Part shown: one piece after another, positions 8,064 to 49,658 of the stretch
How positions within the stretch are numbered: the first letter of the stretch is position 1
How the letters are laid out: each line of letters opens with the position of its first letter
Source of the DNA: Prorocentrum cordatum
Lineage: Eukaryota
Assembly: GCA_963575745.1 (NCBI GenBank)
Contig: CAUYUJ010000157.1
Coordinates: 1-64,000 of the forward strand
Direction of reading: 5' to 3'
DNA length: 64,000 nucleotides
Notes under the pieces: generated by a model
What the model was told of the DNA's origin: nothing
Seen by the model: only the letters and a program-made list of their open reading frames with translations
Database searches by the model: none
Program-made: the position numbers and the translations under genes

Positions 8064-10332
8064 TCAGAAACTCAAGTAGCCCTCCCGGCCGCCCCAGGCG
8101 GACCGCAGCCTCGCCTCCGCCCCGCCGCCAACCCTGTTGCCGTAAAGGTACAGCTCCTTCAGGCCGGGCGCCGAAGGCAGTGCCCTCGCCATGGCCTCAG
8201 CGCCCACGTCGCCCAGGGCGCTGTTGCCCAGGTTCAAGAGCTCCATCGTGGGCACGGAGCACAAAGCACCCGCAAGGGCCTCGGCGCCCGCGTCGCCCAG
8301 GCCGTTGTCGGCCAGGACCAGGGTCCGCAGGTCGGGCATGGAGGGCAGCGCCCCCGCCAGGGCCGCGGCGCCCGCGGCGCCCAGGCCGTTGCTGTTCAGG
8401 CGCAGGGCCCGCAGGGCGGGCGCGGAGGGCAGCGCCCCCGCCAGGGCCTGGGCGCCCGCGTCGCCCAGGCCGTTGCTGAACAGGCCGAGCGTCCGCAGGG
8501 AGGGCATGGAGGGCAGCGCCCCCGCCAGGGCCTCGGCACCCGCGGGGCCGAGGGCGTTCTCGGCCAGGTCCAGCAGCTGCAGTGCGGGCGTGGAGCGCAG
8601 CACCGCAGCCAAGGCCTCGGCGCCCACGTCGCCCAGGCCGTTGCCGCTCAAGCGGAGCTCCCGCAGGTTGGGCGTGGAGTGCAGCGCCCCCGCCAGGGCC
8701 TTGGCGCCCGAGTCGCCCAGGGTGTTCCCGTCCAGGTCCAGCTGCTGCAAGCTGGGCATGGACGGCAGCGCACCTGCAAGTGCCTCGGCGCCCGCGTCGC
8801 TCAGGGCGTTGTCGCTCAGGTATAGCTTCTGCAAGGCGGGCATGCAGGGCAATGCGGTTGCCAGGGCCTCGGCACCCGCGTCGCCAATTTTGCAATTCAT
8901 CAGGTCCAGCCACTCCAGGCGGGCGCACAGCCGCAGGCAGCCAGCGAGCCCCGCCGCCTGCTCGGGTGTCGGGGGCGGCATCCCGTCGAAGTCCAGCTTC
9001 GTCACGCCGCCCAGCTGCGCGCAGCTCATCCGGCGGAAGAGCGCTTTCACCGCCTCCCGGTCGGCGCCGTTGGTAAAAGACCTGTCTTCGATGAGTTGGT
9101 CGAACTGGTCTGGGCCTACTGGCCACCCCCTGCCGGCCTTCGTCGCCCCCGACCGCTTCCCCAGATCGGCCACGGCGGGCCACTTCGCGTCATGGCGAAA
9201 GACCTGCTTGATCTGCTCCGCGGAGCAACGCTCGTACGTTGTCCAGCCTGACTTATCGTACCCGCACTCACGTGCGCTGCCCCGCTCTCGGGGATGCTGC
9301 GTCAGCAAGAAGACGGTGGTGGCCTGGTGGGCGTACCACAGGTCCATCGTCTCGTGCAAGGCATGCTTGAACGCCGCCTTCTCAGCAGGGGTGCGCTTGG
9401 CCTCGTCCGCGGCCTCCTGGGCCTCCTTCTCACATTTGCCCTCCCGCAGGGCGGCGTTCTTCGCCTCCTCTGCCCTGGCAGGGTCGCCCTGCGGCAGCGA
9501 AAGCCAGTCCCAGAACACGCCCATCTCGCTGAATCCCTGGAAGGTGCCCGACGGTTGGGAGTACTTGCCGCGCTCTTCTTCCAGCGTCTCGATGACCAGG
9601 TTCAGCTGAAGCCCCTTGGGGTCGGGGTGCTCTCGCGCATCCCAGCAGAACGAGATCGTGATGATCGGCGCCGCTCCGTCCCCCCCTCCCTGCCCGCCCT
9701 CCTCCCAGACGGCCCTGAGCTCCTCCGAGGACACGAACGCCTCCTCGGGCAGCTCCTGGCGCCTGGGCAGGGGAGCGCCGCGCTGCCGCAGCAGCCACGA
9801 CATGCGGACCAGACGCACCGGGTGGCAGCCTCCCACGGTGAAAGCCAGCGCATCGAACAGGATCTTGGCATCCGTGTACTTGTCCAAGCCCCGATGCTCC
9901 TCGCGCAGGCGCATGGCCTCCCGCGGCTCGAGCAGCCTCATGACAGCGACGCCTTCGACCTGCAGCGGCAGGAAGCGATCGCCGACCCTGACCCAGCCGC
10001 CCGCGTCCTCGGCGCCCTCCACGACGCTGTTCCACACGGCGCACCGTTTCCCGTCCTTGTCCTGCATGTTCCTGCTCCTCCTGTAGCCGAGCCCCCCGGT
10101 GTTGGCACCGAGCGCGCTGTTGTCGACCAGGTACGCGCCTGCAGGCTCTGCCCGCACGGCGCTGTGGCGCAGCTCGGCCAGCTCCCGCTCGATCCTCTCC
10201 ATCATCGCTTGGTGGCAGACGGCCACTTCGTGGAGGGCGCGCCTGTGGTCGCGCAGCGCATCCCACGGCTCGCCGCGCAGCGGCGCCTCGCCGGCAGCTG
10301 CCCTGGGCTGCCCGCGCCTGCTGCTGCTACCG
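8064..10332 (-). CDS. Large terminal exon of a nested gene: coiled coil, SH3-like beta domain, HET-like domain and 10 ribonuclease-inhibitor-type 28-aa LRRs
   Basis: About 755 open codons with strong GC3. LRRs LxxLxLxxNxLGDAGAEALAxAL at about 8100-8920. HET-like motifs ISFCW/HPDP, VFWDWLSLPQ, MDLWY and YDKSGWTTYE at about 9230-9820. The first about 25 aa of the supplied 782-aa ORF are MITE sequence. Confidence 0.9.
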
Positions 10333-10341
10333 CTGCTGCTG

Positions 10342-10951
10342 TTGGGTCGGGCATGCCCCCCTGCGGGCGGATTCTGGACGAAAAAGCAGAATACCCCAAA
10401 GCTCCTCAACAAATACCTCCAAAAGCACTAAGAGCATCGCCCCTGGACTAGTTGTTTGACCATTTCTGAAGCTTTGTCCTGTAGACCCAGACATGCGACG
10501 TCCTGATTTTTCAGGACCGCGTCCCCGCCGACCCACTCCCCGGGACCGGTTCTCCGTCCCGAGTCGTTTTTTGACGGTCGTCCCGGGGGCGAGGGCCCCC
10601 CGGGGCCGAACATTGCCAAAAATCTCCAGCCCTGATTTTTGTTGTTCTTCCCCGACGCGACCATGCCTGGGGAGGGACAGGCCTGACTCGGGATCCGCCC
10701 TACTTTTGGGAAACTCGCAAGTAGGGCTTGGAATTTGCTCCTTACTCTTCAGGCCCCGCTGAAGCCAATTTCCGCCCTACCTTTCTGTTGCTGTGTCCGG
10801 CCTACTTCTGTGGATCTCCGCCCTTCTTTATGTTGGGTGCAGACCTTTCCGCCCTACTGTTCGGCTGCTTATAGGTGGATTTCCGACGCAATTCTAAGTT
10901 GGGGAAAAAGCCAAAGTAGGGCGGATCTGGAGTCAGGGAGGCCCGACTTCC
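10342..10951. mobile_element. MITE family 1 (TIR ttaaGTCGGGCCTGTCCC..; 8-bp TSD) carrying two nested MITEs; forms an intron of the nested gene
   Basis: TSD TGCTGCTG / TGCTGCCG; the internal sequence matches the five other copies. Confidence 0.85.
10486..10671. mobile_element. MITE family 2 inserted in the right TIR of a family-1 MITE
   Basis: CCCAGACATG...CATGCCTGGG with TSD GA. Confidence 0.88.
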
Positions 10952-11307
10952 TGCTGCCGCCCAGGGCGGTGTGCGGGCGCGCGCCTGCGTCCGCCGAGGC
11001 GCGCGAGGCCGCCGGGCGGCCGGCGCCGGCATCTGCAGGCTCGGCCCTGACTCCAGATCCGCCCTACTTGGGCTGTTTTTCCAACGTAAAATTGCATCGA
11101 AAATCCACCTATAAGAAGCCGAGCAAGTAGGGCGGAAATTTCTGCACCCAACATAATTAGAATAGGGCGGAAATCCACAGAAGTAGGGCGGAAACCGCAA
11201 CAGAACAGTGGGGCGGAAATTGGCATCAGCGGGGCCTGAAAAGTAAGGCGGAAATTCCAAGCCCTGCTTACGAATTTCCCCAAAGTAGGGCGGATCCGGA
11301 ATCAGGG
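10681..11307. mobile_element. Inverted pair of family-4 MITEs (10681-10938 and 11045-11307; TIR CCCTGACTCC.GATCCGCCCTACTT)
   Basis: About 260-bp copies in opposite orientation with many CCGCCCTAC subterminal repeats. Copy 1 has TSD AG; copy 2 has no TSD. Confidence 0.88.
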
Positions 11308-11335
11308 ATGCCTGGGGAGGGACACGCCCGACTTC

Positions 11336-11418
11336 CTGCTGCCGCCCTGGGCGGTGTGCGGGCGCGCGCCCGCGTCCACCGCGGCGCGCGAGGCCGCCGG
11401 GCGGCCCGCGCCGGCATC
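11336..11418 (-). CDS. Putative internal exon of the nested gene (DAGAGRPAASRAAVDAGARPHTAQGGS), duplicated at 10951-11044
   Basis: In frame between the 11790 exon and the terminal exon once the TIR inserts are removed; donor AG|GA. The upstream junction is unresolved (simple GC-AG splicing leaves 2 extra nt). Confidence 0.5.
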
Positions 11419-11655
11419 TCGGGTCGGGCGCGAAAGGGGGGGGGGGATAGCAAAGGGGGGGGTTCGAGAATCAGCCCACGGAGCTGACTTTCCCGGCGCC
11501 TCCCGGCGCCGGGAGGCGCCCAAGGGGCCCCTCGGTGAGGCCGAAACCCTCCTCCTCCTCCTCCTCCTCCTCCTCCTCCTCCTCCTCCCCCTCCTCCTCC
11601 TCCCCCTCCTCCTCCCCCCCTTTCCCAATATCCCCCCTTTCGCCCGGCCCGGGCC
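11419..11655. mobile_element. TIR element (family 3; CGGGYCGGGC..GAAAGGGGGG ends)
   Basis: Absent from the duplicate copy of this site at about 11025-11040; TC is duplicated. Confidence 0.75.
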
Positions 11656-11790
11656 TCTGCAGGCTCGGGGCCGGCGGGCGGCGCCCGGCCGGGCTGCGGG
11701 GCCGCTGCTGCTGCCGAGCCGCTGGGCGCCCCTCCCGCGGGCGCCGGGAGCGCCGCGCCGCGGCGCAGCCCCGCCAGCTCCCCGTCGATC
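11656..11790 (-). CDS. Putative exon of the nested gene (R)IDGELAGLRRGAALPAPAGG...PEPA
   Basis: Acceptor tatag|G. The peptide is paralogous to RIERELAELRHSA in the terminal exon. Confidence 0.65.
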
Positions 11791-11804
11791 CTATAGGAGG
11801 AGGA

Positions 11805-11858
11805 CCCAGACATGATCGCGTCGTTGTCTTTTTGGGGGGTGGGGGGGGGGCATTTTTC

Positions 11859-11895
<37 letters not shown>

Positions 11896-12371
11896 GTATG
11901 CATGCATGCATGCATGCATGCATGCATGATGTATGTATGCATGTATACGTATGTACGTATGTATGTATGTATGTATGTACGTATTGTAGGTAGGTACGTA
12001 TGTATGTATGTATGTATGTATGTATGCATGTATGTATGTATGTATGTATGTATGTATGTATGTATGTATGTATGTATGTATGTATGTATGTATGTATGTA
12101 TGTATGTATGTATGTATGTATGTATGTATGTATGTATGTATGTATGTATGCATGTATGTCTGTATGTATGTATGTATATATTTATATGTCTGTATATATA
12201 TATAACAAAAAGAAAACAACGGGAGGTTTGGGGCCATTTTCGGCCCCGGGGGGCCCTCGCCGGGCCTCGGGACCGTCAAGAAACGACTCGGGACGGAAAA
12301 CCGGTCCCGGGGAAAGGGTCGGGACTTGCGGGGGCGCGGCCCTGAAAAAATCGGGACGTCGCATGTCTGGG
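11805..12371. mobile_element. MITE family 2 with internal (TA)n/(CATG)n/(TATG)n expansion
   Basis: TIRs intact, TSD GA; microsatellite at about 11859-12202. Confidence 0.85.
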
Positions 12372-12504
12372 GAGAAGCCACATGAGCACCCCCTTCTGAG
12401 CGCGCCAGGGGCGGCGCCAGAGGCGCCGCCGGGGGGCCCCAGGCGCGGATCCACAAGAGATCCGCGCGGAGCGCCACTTCATGTGGCTTTTCTACTTCGA
12501 GGTC

Positions 12505-12751
12505 CTCTCCGCCATCGCCTTGTGGCACGCCGCCACTGCGCGCAGGGCCCGCCGGTGCTCGCGCAGCGCCTCCCCGCCTCCCGACCGCCCGCGCAGCGGC
12601 GCGCCGCCAGCGCTCGCCCCCCGAGGGGGCTGCCGCTCGAGCTGCCCGCGGCCGCCGCCGAGTGCGTCGAGCGGGGCGGGCGTGGCCACGGGGCCACTTC
12701 GAGCGGCCCGGCGCCCAGCCTCTGCGGGGAGCCGAGGTGCCGAGGCTGCTG
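12505..12751 (-). CDS. Putative exon of the nested gene ...GAPLRGRSGGGEALREHRRALRAVAACHKAMAE(R)
   Basis: Paralogous to APLRGEPWDALRDHRRALHEVAVCHQAMMER (about 10190-10300). Donor AG|GA at 12504. 5' boundary approximate. Confidence 0.65.
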
Positions 12752-12760
12752 CTCCCCGGA

Positions 12761-13130
12761 CCCAGACATGCTCGCGTCGTAAAAAAGATCGAGGCGTTTC
12801 CTCGTGTTCGGCCCCGGGGGGCCTTCGCGGGCCTCGGGACCCTCCAAAACGATTCAGGACGAAAAGCCGGTCCCGTGGAAAAGTCACCTCTCCCAGTGTC
12901 TAGGATCGTCGCAGGAGCGTTTTTTCTGAAACTTTTGTTTCACTGGGGTCGGGGCTTCCGTCGACGCTGCGGGCAGTTTGCGCGGCTCGCAACATAGCAA
13001 CGCCATTCAGCGCGCGCGGGGGCGCACGCGGGCACTCAGAAGCGCGCGGCACTCGAAGTCCCGACCTTTTCAAAAGGTCGGGACTTCCAAGGACGCCGTC
13101 CTGAAAAAATCAGGACGTCGCATGCCTGGG
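12761..13130. mobile_element. MITE family 2 with an internal insertion of about 190 bp
   Basis: TIRs, TSD GA. Confidence 0.85.
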
Positions 13131-13244
13131 GATGCTGCCCGGCATTTCGAGGCGACTCCAGCCGTGGCGGCGAGGGCCACCCGGTAGGCCCAAGAAGGCG
13201 AGCACGAGCGAAGGGTAGCAGCATTGGTCCATCGCTCCCTCCTC

Positions 13245-13432
13245 CCCAGGCCCCCGACGTCGTGATTTTTTTTGACAACGTCGACCCCCAGAGGTCTGGA
13301 CTCCTTCCCCGGAACCGGTTTTGCATCCTGAGTCGTTTTTTGACGGCCCCGAGGCCCGGTAAGGGCCCCCGGAGGCCGAAAATAAGGAAAAACCTTCCGT
13401 CGTGATTTTTTCACAGCGCGAGGGGGTCTGGG
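13245..13432. mobile_element. MITE family 2
   Basis: TIRs, TSD TC. Confidence 0.85.
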
Positions 13433-13438
13433 TCTGAG

Positions 13439-13550
13439 CCTCGCGGTAGGCCGCGCCCAGCACGGCCGAGGCGGCCCTGGAGCGGCCAGTCACAGGTCCG
13501 TCGTCGCCTCTGGGGCTCCCCGTGGCGCGCTCCCGCGGCACCGAGGCCAT
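13439..13550 (-). CDS. Candidate first exon of the nested gene MASVPRERATGSPRGDDGPVTGRSRAASAVLGAAYRE
   Basis: GCT ATG GCC start, GC3-rich, donor GAG|GC. A further small exon at about 13126-13180 is possible but has no clean AG acceptor. Confidence 0.4.
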
Positions 13551-35706: not shown

Positions 35707-35878
35707 CCCTAGCGGGGCAAGCCAGCGTTCCGCCTCCCCGGGGCAGGAGCGGGGACGAGACCGATTCCGTGCAAGATGCTTCTTCCAGTGGCGCAAGAAG
35801 CTCAAGAACCGTAATGACTGCTTCCGACCCCTGCCGTAAGCCCGTTGACAACGATTGAAACATACGGGGCGCGTAAGG

Positions 35879-36038
35879 TTAAGTCGGGCGTGTCCCCCTA
35901 CAGGCGGATTTTGGACGAAACATAAAAAAATGTCAACACACATTCACAAAGTGCTCCAAAATACTCAAAAATCGTCCCCTGATTATTTTTTGACTACTTT
36001 TGAATATTCCTCTTTGTAGAGGGACAGGCCCGACCTAA
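35879..36038. mobile_element. MITE family 1
   Basis: Perfect TSD GCGTAAGG. Confidence 0.9.
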
Positions 36039-40257: not shown

Positions 40258-44450
<4,193 letters not shown>

Positions 44451-46980: not shown

Positions 46981-47201
46981 CAACCTCTGAACTGTTCATG
47001 AGAGGCCTATGATAGGCGTATGGAAGATGATGAAAGGCTTATGGCTCTAGGTAGCCTCCGAGAGGCTTCCAGAACGATTATGGCAATAATCGTGGTAGTA
47101 CTAGTCGTAAAGTAGTAATACTAGTAGTGGTAGTAGTAGTAGTTGTAGTTGTAGCAGTAGAAAGATTAGCAGCAGCAGTAGTCGTAGTAGTAGTCGTAAC
47201 C

Positions 47202-47578
<377 letters not shown>

Positions 47579-47597
47579 GTGTAGTAGTAGTAGTAGT

Positions 47598-47721
<124 letters not shown>

Positions 47722-47729
47722 TAGTAGTT

Positions 47730-47867
<138 letters not shown>

Positions 47868-47868
47868 T

Positions 47869-47959
<91 letters not shown>

Positions 47960-47990
47960 TGGTAGTGGTAGTCGTAATAATAGTAATAGA

Positions 47991-49016
47991 AAAATCCGCC
48001 GGCCCCCTTGTGGGGCCACCAGGCTGTAGGCACGTGATTCGCAGTTTCCTGTACCAGTCGTAGGTTGTAGTTTCCAGTGTTACAGTTCTGCTTCTTGCTG
48101 GTTACTGTAACTAGTTGACTTCTTGCTGGTTACTGTAACTAGTTGATTGACCGCGCGACGGGGGGGGAGACCCAAACCAGATTTTTACCCTACCTGGGCG
48201 TGTTGTCTGAATTGCTGGGGGGGCTCGAAATCGACACCCCTCACGCAGATCCGCGGGGTCAGGGTCCAAAAACACAGGGATTTGCCACATTTCTGAAATT
48301 CTGTGCCACCCCTCACGCAGATCCGCGGGGTCAGGGTCCAAAAACACAGGGATTTGCCACATTTCTGAAATTCGGTGCCACCCCTCACGCAGATCCGCGG
48401 GGTCAGGGTCCAAAAACACAAGGGATTTGCAACATTTCTGAAATTCGATGCCACCCCTCACGCAGATCCGCGGGGTCAGGGTCCAAAAACACAGGGATTT
48501 GCCACATTTCTGAAATTCGGTGCCACCCCTCACGCAGATCCGCGGGGTCAGGGTCCAAAAACACAGGGGATTTGCCACATTTCTGAAATTCGGTGCCACC
48601 CCTCACGCAGATCCGCGGGGTCAGGGTCCAAAAACACATGGGATTTGCTACATTTCTGAAATTCGGTGCCACCCCTCACGCAGATCCGCGGGGTCAGGGT
48701 CCAAAAACACAGGGGATTTGCCACATTTCTGAAATTCGGTGACGCACATCCATCGCAAGGCGTGGTAACCCAAACTGCGAGAACTCCCTCGGCCCTTTAA
48801 TCGCAAGGTGTGTGTAACCAAGCCCGTAAACCATACACGTCTTACCAATCGCCAGGTGTGGTAACCCCTCTTGTGATCAGTTGGTTTTGCTGATTGCGAA
48901 TCGGCTTCGCATGAAGTTTCGATACTGCTTCACGACAGCGCCAAGGCCTCATGACTTAGCTCTTCCATTGCCCATTCTCCGAGAGAGGGGGCCGGCGGCA
49001 GGGGGCGAAGCCCTTA
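47991..49016 (+). mobile_element. Helentron/HINE-like non-autonomous rolling-circle element
   Basis: 13-bp subterminal IR CCGCCGGCCCCCT (47996-48008 and 48986-48998), 3' hairpin GGGC-GAA-GCCC (49003-49013), internal tandem arrays, no TSD visible. Confidence 0.6.
48236..48740. repeat. Minisatellite, 7 x 72-73 bp, near-identical units
   Basis: Unit ACCCCTCACGCAGATCCGCGGGGTCAGGGTCCAAAAACACAGGGATTTGCCACATTTCTGAAATTCGGTGCC. Confidence 0.95.
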
Positions 49017-49097
49017 CGGATGGTAGTAGTAGTAGTAGTAGTAGTAGTAGCAGTAGTAGTAGTAGTAGTAGTAGTAGCAGTAGTAGTAGTAGTAGTC

Positions 49098-49151
<54 letters not shown>

Positions 49152-49196
49152 TTGGTAGTAGTAGTAGTAGTAGTAGTAGCAGTAGTAGTAGTAGCG

Positions 49197-49227
<31 letters not shown>

Positions 49228-49344
49228 CAGTAGCAGTAGTAGTAGTAGTAGTGAGTAGTAGTAGTAGTGTTACGTAGTAGAGTAGTGGTGTGGTGGGGTA
49301 GTGTAGAGTCGTATCGTAGTAGTAAAAGTCTAGTAGTAGTAGTC

Positions 49345-49403
<59 letters not shown>

Positions 49404-49454
49404 TCGTAGTAGTAGTAGTAGTAGTAGTAGTAGTTAGTAGTCGTGTAGTAGAGT

Positions 49455-49485
<31 letters not shown>

Positions 49486-49658
49486 TAGTAGTAGTCGTAG
49501 TAGTAGTAGGAGTAGTAGTAGTAGTAGTAGTGGTAGTAGTAGTTAGTAGTAGTAGTAGTAGTAGTAGTAGTACTAGTAGTTAGTACTAGTTAGTAGTAGT
49601 AGTTGTAAGTAGTAGTAGTAGGAGTAGTCGTTCGCGTCGTCGTCGGCGTCGTCGTTCG

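Follow-up and report, generated by a model that had tools for sequence, protein, structure and literature searches.

A probable HET-like effector domain fused directly to leucine-rich repeats, with no NTPase, in a large dinoflagellate and haptophyte protein family

Introduction

Can an effector-like domain be coupled directly to a leucine-rich repeat (LRR) sensor, with no nucleoside triphosphatase (NTPase) domain in the same chain? The question is raised by a locus of the dinoflagellate Prorocentrum cordatum, which lies in the first 64,000 nucleotides of contig CAUYUJ010000157.1 (assembly GCA_963575745.1); this whole stretch is referred to here as the window. On the minus strand, 8064–10427 reads without a stop over 787 codons, and no other frame in the window comes near this length; the first-pass annotation had described it as a HET- or TIR-like domain joined to LRRs, within a gene reaching 13550. 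Few cell-death domains of fungi are as abundant as HET. Judged from sequence relationships, the protein of this open reading frame (ORF) belongs to a very large dinoflagellate and haptophyte family with a characteristic layout—a variable N-terminal module, a HET-like alpha/beta domain of ~300 amino acids, LRRs of the ribonuclease-inhibitor (RNI) type, and no NTPase—and the central domain is probably a HET-like effector, in all likelihood of the TIR superfamily, fused directly to the repeats.

Leucine-rich repeats and absence of an NTPase

The principal features of the ORF are as follows.

8064–10427, minus strand: stop-to-stop open frame of 787 codons, with the stop codon at 8064–8066
8958–9890, minus strand: HET-like domain of 311 amino acids (residues 180–490), which defines the family; supported by homologs, an AlphaFold2 model and hhalign to HET
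9618–9674, minus strand: Block 1, PIITISFCW....HPD (residues 252–270), with S259 and D269 invariant; aligns to HET ALSYxWG
9231–9245, minus strand: WxxxE motif, W395-T-T-Y-E399, with the candidate catalytic Glu; aligns to the Glu of HET WTYQE
8094–8933, minus strand: ten 28-amino-acid RNI-type LRRs (residues 499–778), supported by register, Pfam LRR_6 and the DNA period

All of the motifs quoted in the first-pass annotation are found where they were claimed: AYLVDNS (residue 98), GLGYRRS (112), GWVRV (144) and FLPL (152) precede the central domain, and ISFCW (258), HPDP (267), VFWDWLSLPQ (304), MDLWY (361) and YDKSGWTTYE (390) lie within it. The ten predicted LRRs are likewise present, in perfect register over residues 499–778 (the C-terminal 280 residues). 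They match Pfam LRR_6 (PF13516) in 8 stretches with an E-value of 5.1e-44, and the underlying DNA has an 84-nucleotide period. A profile of the whole-protein family finds only LRR proteins among PDB sequences, the best being ribonuclease inhibitor (E 3.3e-50), followed by the LRRs of NLRP3 and NLRP5.

The reported absence of an NTPase also holds. Neither G....GK[ST], nor the looser [AG]....GK[ST], nor GK[ST] alone has a single match in the protein, so there is no Walker A motif, and neither NACHT nor NB-ARC is matched in Pfam. When 15 P. cordatum paralogs are compared with the window protein, the domain is 65–81% identical and the LRR part 46–70%; the paralogs have 1–6 LRR motifs (n=15) versus 9 motif matches, corresponding to the ten repeats, in the window protein. 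Variability of this kind resembles that of a sensor.

Relationship of the central domain to HET and TIR

No Pfam model names the central domain, and PDB sequences searched with its profile (hmmsearch) gave 0 matches at E≤10. A HET set was assembled for profile comparison. PF06985 was searched for in 401 genomes belonging to one bacterial phylum, which yielded one HET ORF (48.9 bits); from this ORF nine further HET proteins were found, eight of them already labelled PF06985 and all nine matching the Pfam HET model, among them two named proteins of fungi (Lasiosphaeria and Neoarthrinium). As a positive control, 10/10 of these HET proteins match the Pfam HET model, with 23.5–118.8 bits. The HET alignment consists of 9 sequences, one protein without blocks 1–2 being left out. 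The family profile was built from the 153 of 211 proteins that match more than 240 of 294 profile positions, and was cut to the core (domain residues 60–245).

The family core aligns to the 9-sequence HET (PF06985) profile over 85 columns with 82.8% probability, a score of 38.5 and an E-value of 9.3e-6, this and all other hhalign E-values being those of a single comparison. Two reversed-profile controls gave probabilities of 0.2% and 0.7% (E 0.25 and 0.081; scores 13.0 and 16.1; 25 and 41 columns). Sixty column shuffles of HET reached at most 1.8% probability and a score of 18.9 (mean 12.4), and sixty shuffles of eight-column blocks reached a score of 28.5 (mean 17.0); the real score was attained in 0/60 of either kind. 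The 85-column alignment, which takes in blocks 1 and 2, pairs three segments of the family with their HET counterparts: IvaVSYCW with ALSYxWG, GVFxDWxSLxQ with iWVDAxCIxQ, and AL..MxLWYAH..TtvxLLT with l..MgxIY..A..vvVxLs. Against five short bacterial HET sequences the core gave 49% (E 1.7e-4, score 30.5, 98 columns; reversed control 0.2%, E 0.38, score 11.5, 24 columns), and here all three blocks are collinear, with family RGWxTFE lying on HET RxWTYQE, Glu on Glu.

The same set-up applied to HET versus 30 TIR_2 sequences, an accepted remote pair, gave 78.9% (E 1.6e-5, score 36.6, 73 columns), in agreement with Dyrka 2014 (PMC4986451). Because the family core reaches 82.8% with HET and only 5.2% with TIR_2, and HET itself reaches 78.9% with TIR_2, the domain is to be placed, on these profiles, closer to HET than to TIR, its connection to TIR running through HET. 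The HET parallel drawn in the first-pass annotation thus goes beyond motif resemblance, the alignment standing far above its shuffles and reversals with three blocks in order, even as the Pfam HET and TIR models themselves fail. We regard it as quite likely that the central domain is homologous to HET, as a distant relative of the fungal domain.

A resemblance to HET by convergence, the domain being some other Rossmann- or flavodoxin-like enzyme (for example glycosyltransferase-like) related to neither HET nor TIR, would account for the missing Pfam HET and TIR matches. It is very improbable given that the collinear three-block alignment scores far above 120 shuffles, that the position of WxxxE is common to the family and HET, and that no glycosyltransferase (GT) family in Pfam is matched.

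Two other alignments were set aside. An untrimmed profile of 283 columns gave 99.6% and E 1.9e-23, and was discarded as an artefact of terminal columns since alternatives of 13 and 20 columns score nearly equally; a global hhalign run returned a 1-column 'match' and was not used. As a separate observation, TIR_2 has 33 matches in one genome and 18 in another of the sampled bacterial phylum, a strong lineage-specific expansion.

Conservation and predicted fold

In the 153-sequence alignment, numbered by the ORF, S259, D269, W395 and E399 are present in 153/153 members, and R223, Q224, A230, W262, P268, F305, D307, Q313, R345, W364, H367, G394, P436 and D456 in at least 149/153; H267 is near-invariant. 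The window copy keeps every invariant family residue. The final Glu of TTYE, said in the first-pass annotation to be retained, is E399, which aligns on the Glu of HET WTYQE. The invariant and near-invariant polar residues fit what would be expected of an enzyme active site.

An AlphaFold2 model of the domain, built from a 42-sequence alignment, has a mean predicted local distance difference test (pLDDT) of 94.4 and a predicted template modelling score (pTM) of 0.93, with an alternating strand–helix core; W395-x-x-x-E399 belongs to the helix predicted to follow its third strand. In TIR NAD+-cleaving enzymes the WxxxE of the C-helix carries the catalytic Glu, for example W204/E208 of AbTir (PMC10641520). 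E399 is accordingly placed as a candidate catalytic Glu, linked to the TIR Glu only by way of HET.

Foldseek of the model against the PDB found nothing at E≤0.001, the best E-value being 0.14. The weak structural matches are to nucleoside 2-deoxyribosyltransferases (NDTs; 1f8x with a score of 4.7, others 3.6–4.2), to TIR domains (SpbK 4.6, MAL 4.1, TIRAP 4.0, IL-1RAcPb 4.0, MyD88 3.9, ThsB 3.8, TRR-2 3.7 and SARM1 3.5), including the plant TIRs RPPT-TIR (3.6) and RPP1 (3.5), and to C-domains of glycosyltransferases of the GT-B fold (3.6–4.0). None of these scores is high enough for a fold match to be relied on; the general theme agrees, weakly, with a TIR- or NDT-type domain and is no proof of one. 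A comparison model of HET (a HET fragment with 8 relatives) had a pLDDT of 43.2 and was unusable as a control.

A non-catalytic role has been proposed for HET in the form of an adaptor-type function (Dyrka 2014, PMC4986451), and MAL, TIRAP and MyD88, adaptors that form filaments, are among the best structural matches to TIRs. The HET-like domain might by analogy serve only for homotypic assembly, as animal TIR adaptors do, with the LRRs recruiting partners. We think this rather improbable, since the absolute invariance of E399 and W395 and the invariant or near-invariant set of Ser, Asp, His, Arg and Gln residues suit catalysis better than an interface. A catalytic domain is, on the pattern of conserved residues, somewhat favoured over an adaptor.

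Members and architectures of the family

A homology search with residues 90–470 as the query scored 8,000 candidates and found 79 homologs at E≤1e-3. By source name they include 20 from Prorocentrum cordatum, 6 from Emiliania huxleyi and 1 from Chrysochromulina, together with metagenomic sequences and MMETSP/EukProt transcripts. The closest relatives are unnamed P. cordatum paralogs, ~79% identical; none of the 79 is identical to the window protein. The region common to the relatives extends from 'RYTD' (residue ~183) up to the LRRs, 311 amino acids. An exhaustive HMMER search of 1.84 billion cluster representatives, with a profile of the domain alone built from 13 sequences, matched 5,162 representatives at E≤1e-3, 2,943 at ≤1e-10 and 829 at ≤1e-30; the best 150 of the 5,162 all have E<5e-51. 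The ESM Atlas returned only the family's own clusters, unnamed or labelled by their LRRs, and a domain scan of bacterial and archaeal genomes returned one locus, where the match lies across an anti-sigma/sigma gene pair but not in the frame of these genes, and was rejected as spurious.

Pfam architectures were scanned in the 72 longest of 131 new representatives, the 59 shorter ones being left out. LRRs are recognized in 49/72 and no Pfam domain whatsoever in 19/72; NACHT lies downstream of the HET-like domain in 2/72, and a Walker A pattern occurs in only 1/131 representatives. Because of these counts the domain with LRRs and without an NTPase is the family norm and no peculiarity of the window copy. 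In the two NACHT-bearing relatives the domain sits, by its position N-terminal to NACHT, in the effector slot of a NOD-like receptor (NLR); one of them, Prymnesium parvum KAL1520434.1 (2,381 amino acids), has the domain at 241–513, NACHT at 1173–1322 and LRR_6 at the C-terminus. Partners at the N-termini of the 72 relatives are EF-hand (3), DUF4116 (3), PH, SH3, ubiquitin and HEAT, and in one relative the HET-like domain is preceded by an NAD:arginine ADP-ribosyltransferase domain.

The P. cordatum paralogs begin MGCCM(A/S)SRQA, followed by a variable linker. We take the MGCCM start to be a dual-acylation pattern (N-myristoylation and palmitoylation). Among the family representatives 24/131 begin MG and 12/131 MGC. 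Starts of the MGCC type or signalling modules in many paralogs suggest action at membranes. The C-terminal ~150 residues of two P. cordatum paralogs are periodic strings rich in Cys, Pro and Arg (CPPCPACR...TTASA...); these tails seem to be LRR DNA read in the wrong frame, so that some database gene models are probably frameshifted within the repeats.

The family also lends itself to a reading as a housekeeping or physiological signalling enzyme, which would make NAD-derived messengers (for example of the cyclic ADP-ribose type) or modify nucleotides at membranes, with the LRRs and N-terminal modules for Ca2+, lipid or peptide binding as regulators. The EF-hands (3/72), PH, SH3, ubiquitin and DUF4116 (3/72) at the relatives' N-termini are as this reading would have it, as are the MGCC-type start of the P. 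cordatum paralogs, the MG starts among the representatives, the relative with an ADP-ribosyltransferase domain and the invariant polar residues, which suit an enzyme. On the other hand, the enormous size and rapid divergence of the multigene family, the varying number of its LRRs and the occasional fusion to NACHT have the pattern of a receptor repertoire, and we consider the physiological enzyme unlikely, though a serious rival to an immune role.

As the first-pass annotation anticipated, relatives are named 'NLRC3' in databases, a labelling due to their LRRs. A literature search, with supplementary tables outside its scope, found no account of the family, nor was one reached through six E. 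huxleyi locus tags. The family—Pfam-negative, with thousands of members in dinoflagellates and haptophytes—thus appears undescribed, and so does the direct HET-like-to-LRR architecture.

The 5' end, the upstream region and RNA reads

Four further features lie in the N-terminal part of the frame and upstream of it.

9930–10136, minus strand: beta-rich N-terminal module of ~69 amino acids (residues 98–166), outside the family core
10152–10271, minus strand: helix-prone segment (residues 53–92), which contains the first in-frame ATG (M75)
10430–12440: repeat-filled spacer with inverted repeats, dispersed direct repeats, a CCT run and a TATG/TA microsatellite of 8-nucleotide period
12462–12617, minus strand: partial duplicate of the helix-prone segment, stop-terminated, found by tblastn and DNA alignment

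M75 is at 10203–10205. The first ~40 codons of the frame are similar to a repeat that is also present at 35845–35961 and are for that reason probably not coding. The module at residues 98–166 is not covered by the P. cordatum paralogs and has no match in Pfam or in PDB sequences; two tandem copies, 51% and 49% identical, occur at the N-terminus of an RRM protein of MMETSP, a marine transcriptome. We note it as an unannotated beta-rich module of ~65 amino acids with the pattern YLVDNS..GLGYRxS..GWVRVGxRFLP, a mobile dinoflagellate domain.

Two paralogous coiled-coil segments had been assigned to the gene. A second copy of the helical segment does exist at 12462–12617, 48% identical to the N-terminal one across 52 amino acids (tblastn); in DNA the two have 78% mean column identity over 231 columns, with agreement for only ~95 nucleotides followed by divergence. 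Its membership in the same gene is not borne out, as it is stop-terminated and separated from the ORF by ~2 kb of inverted and dispersed repeats and microsatellite, and there is no support for coding sequence as far as 13550. The copy may be either an exon lying further upstream or what is left of a partial duplication. Upstream of the ORF there are also short dispersed repeats whose copies are 83–85% identical (10530–10577 with 13299–13346, and 12313–12373 with 13072–13132) and a 143-nucleotide inverted repeat, 88% complementary (10682–10824 with 11164–11306); these look like small mobile-element remnants.

RNA evidence comes from one raw RNA run, of which ~12% was read, with 65 matching reads. 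Eight of the 65 are at least 99% identical to the locus. First mates over the ORF are on the plus strand only, which fits minus-strand family transcripts in a standard stranded library. A relic dinoflagellate spliced-leader 15-mer has 0 matches allowing up to 3 mismatches.

The window copy might, independently of what the family does, be a dead or rearranged paralog, truncated at its 5' end and joined to foreign N-terminal sequence. No MGCC exon is found and the paralog N-termini give no tblastn match in the window; the first ATG of the frame comes only at residue 75; the upstream region contains repeats and a duplicate fragment that runs into a stop; exact RNA reads are few (8/65 at ≥99%); and no identical protein is among the database matches. 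Against this, 787 codons are stop-free, all invariant family residues are kept, the ten LRRs are intact, the N-terminal module recurs elsewhere as a conserved domain in its own right, and the RNA evidence is drawn from only 12% of one run. A dead copy is in our judgement improbable, at about the level of the physiological enzyme.

Other features of the window

The surroundings of the locus have 58–70% GC, and the window is eukaryotic. None of its other long ORFs (0/28) reaches a Pfam gathering score, so there is no credible neighbouring gene. A 4.2-kb (AGT)n trinucleotide array at 40261–44420, with ~1,378 copies and 75% matches, is the cause of an AT-rich block with strong G-over-C skew at 40–48 kb. 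Further arrays lie at 47095–47989, 49023–49628 and 48235–48741: two (GTA)n arrays and a 73-nucleotide unit repeated 7 times with 97% identity.

Proposed mechanism and significance

The best overall explanation, which we hold to be about evenly poised between right and wrong, is that the ORF encodes a sensor and effector in one chain, a HET-like domain with LRRs. In the mechanism that we propose, the C-terminal LRR horseshoe would bind a protein or ligand, or would keep the effector domain inactive. On release, the HET-like domains would self-associate and, like TIR-superfamily N-glycosidases, might cleave NAD+ or a related nucleotide by means of the WxxxE Glu. Cleavage would give a signal or deplete NAD+ and would end in cell death or arrest, and acylated or signalling-type N-termini would position many members at membranes. 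The enzymatic activity of HET was itself still unestablished in 2023 (PMC10197012).

Several observations weigh against this explanation. The window protein has no match at E≤1 to the Pfam HET and TIR models, these models match 0/42 members at E≤10 and 0/72 at E≤1e-3 (114 scanned), and PADLOC and NCBIfam give no relevant match. The HET alignment is thin (9 sequences; effective number of sequences, Neff, 2.9); hhalign was run with -norealign on a trimmed core, with single-comparison E-values; the 13-sequence family profile scores weakly against HET (0.6% and 31.7%); and the core versus 30 TIR_2 sequences is not significant (5.2%, E 0.0076, score 21.0, 30 columns; reversed control 1.6%, E 0.033, score 17.4, 28 columns). 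The N-terminal partners EF-hand, PH, SH3 and ubiquitin suit general signalling no less than immunity. At the locus itself, the copy is without the paralogs' MGCC start, and 57/65 RNA reads fit only partly, at 95–99% identity, and therefore come from paralogs.

An immune role is plausible by analogy with fungal HET and haptophyte TIR genes, and a function in biotic (non-self) sensing is put forward tentatively, as somewhat less probable than its opposite. More speculative still, and on balance doubtful, is the wider proposal that thousands of HET-like-LRR proteins, often membrane-tethered, might form an innate-immune class of dinoflagellates and haptophytes without an NTPase switch, in which variable LRRs would sense viral, bacterial or grazer cues and fire an NAD+-cleaving domain directly. 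Were it true, the family would help to decide the outcome of infection and the collapse of blooms in key marine algae, and would make the lineage of HET domains accessible, for the first time, to a workable enzyme assay.

The gene opens a very large family that has no Pfam name and is at most labelled 'NLRC3-like'. If the domain is catalytic, HET/TIR-type enzymology would gain a soluble model that is regulated by repeats. The family would then also provide candidate receptors, a whole repertoire of them, for host–virus and host–bacteria interactions of bloom-forming dinoflagellates and coccolithophores, and a case of sensor–effector coupling without the NTPase of plant, animal, fungal and bacterial NLRs.

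Comparison with known systems

A HET- or TIR-superfamily effector with a repeat sensor is a known kind of system. The family shares with fungal HET (PF06985; HET-E, TOL) three collinear blocks—SY/FxW; hWxDxxxxxQ ... MxxhY..A..hhhhL; and WxxxE—with the Glu conserved, a position N-terminal to NACHT in 2 relatives, and the habit of an abundant, fast-diverging multigene family. It differs in failing the Pfam HET model, in an N-terminal extension of ~70 amino acids with a near-invariant RRQ, in the HPD motif after block 1, in a variable charged insertion within block 2, in a C-terminal WP..P..F / FTNGAD extension, in its fusion to LRRs, and in its dinoflagellate and haptophyte hosts. The fungal NLR survey reports no LRR motifs (PMC4986451), and the same source records HET homologs in haptophytes and other protists (Dyrka 2014, PMC4986451).

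With TIR NAD+ N-glycosidases (SARM1, plant TIRs, AbTir, ThsB and SpbK) the domain has in common an alternating beta–alpha core and a WxxxE helix after the third strand, and these enzymes are among its best, though weak, structural matches. It differs from them in having no Pfam TIR match, in its 5.2% probability against TIR_2, and in being twice the size of a TIR domain.

TIR-based immunity in microalgae was first reported in 2025, for canonical TIR-only genes only (PMC12489294). These genes, from Gephyrocapsa (Emiliania) huxleyi, were identified through TIR Pfam families and are described as encoding no nucleotide-binding site (NBS) or LRR domains; they mark virus resistance and have a conserved catalytic Glu, with a proposed NAD+-based antiviral role (PMC12489294). 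Their host group is common to part of the HET-like-LRR family; the window family, in contrast, is HET-like and LRR-fused and falls outside that study (PMC12489294).

Receptors of the NLRC3/NLRP type and plant TIR-NB-LRR (TNL) receptors also combine LRRs with an effector-like domain in a single chain, and the repeats of the family are RNI-type LRR_6, as in NLRP3, NLRP5 and NLRC3, whereas the window protein is without NACHT, NB-ARC and Walker A, and NACHT is present in only 2/72 relatives. Toll-like receptors combine an LRR sensor with a TIR-superfamily domain in one polypeptide and have no NTPase switch. The family shows the reverse order, with the effector-like domain N-terminal and the LRRs C-terminal, and its LRRs are of the cytosolic ribonuclease-inhibitor type.

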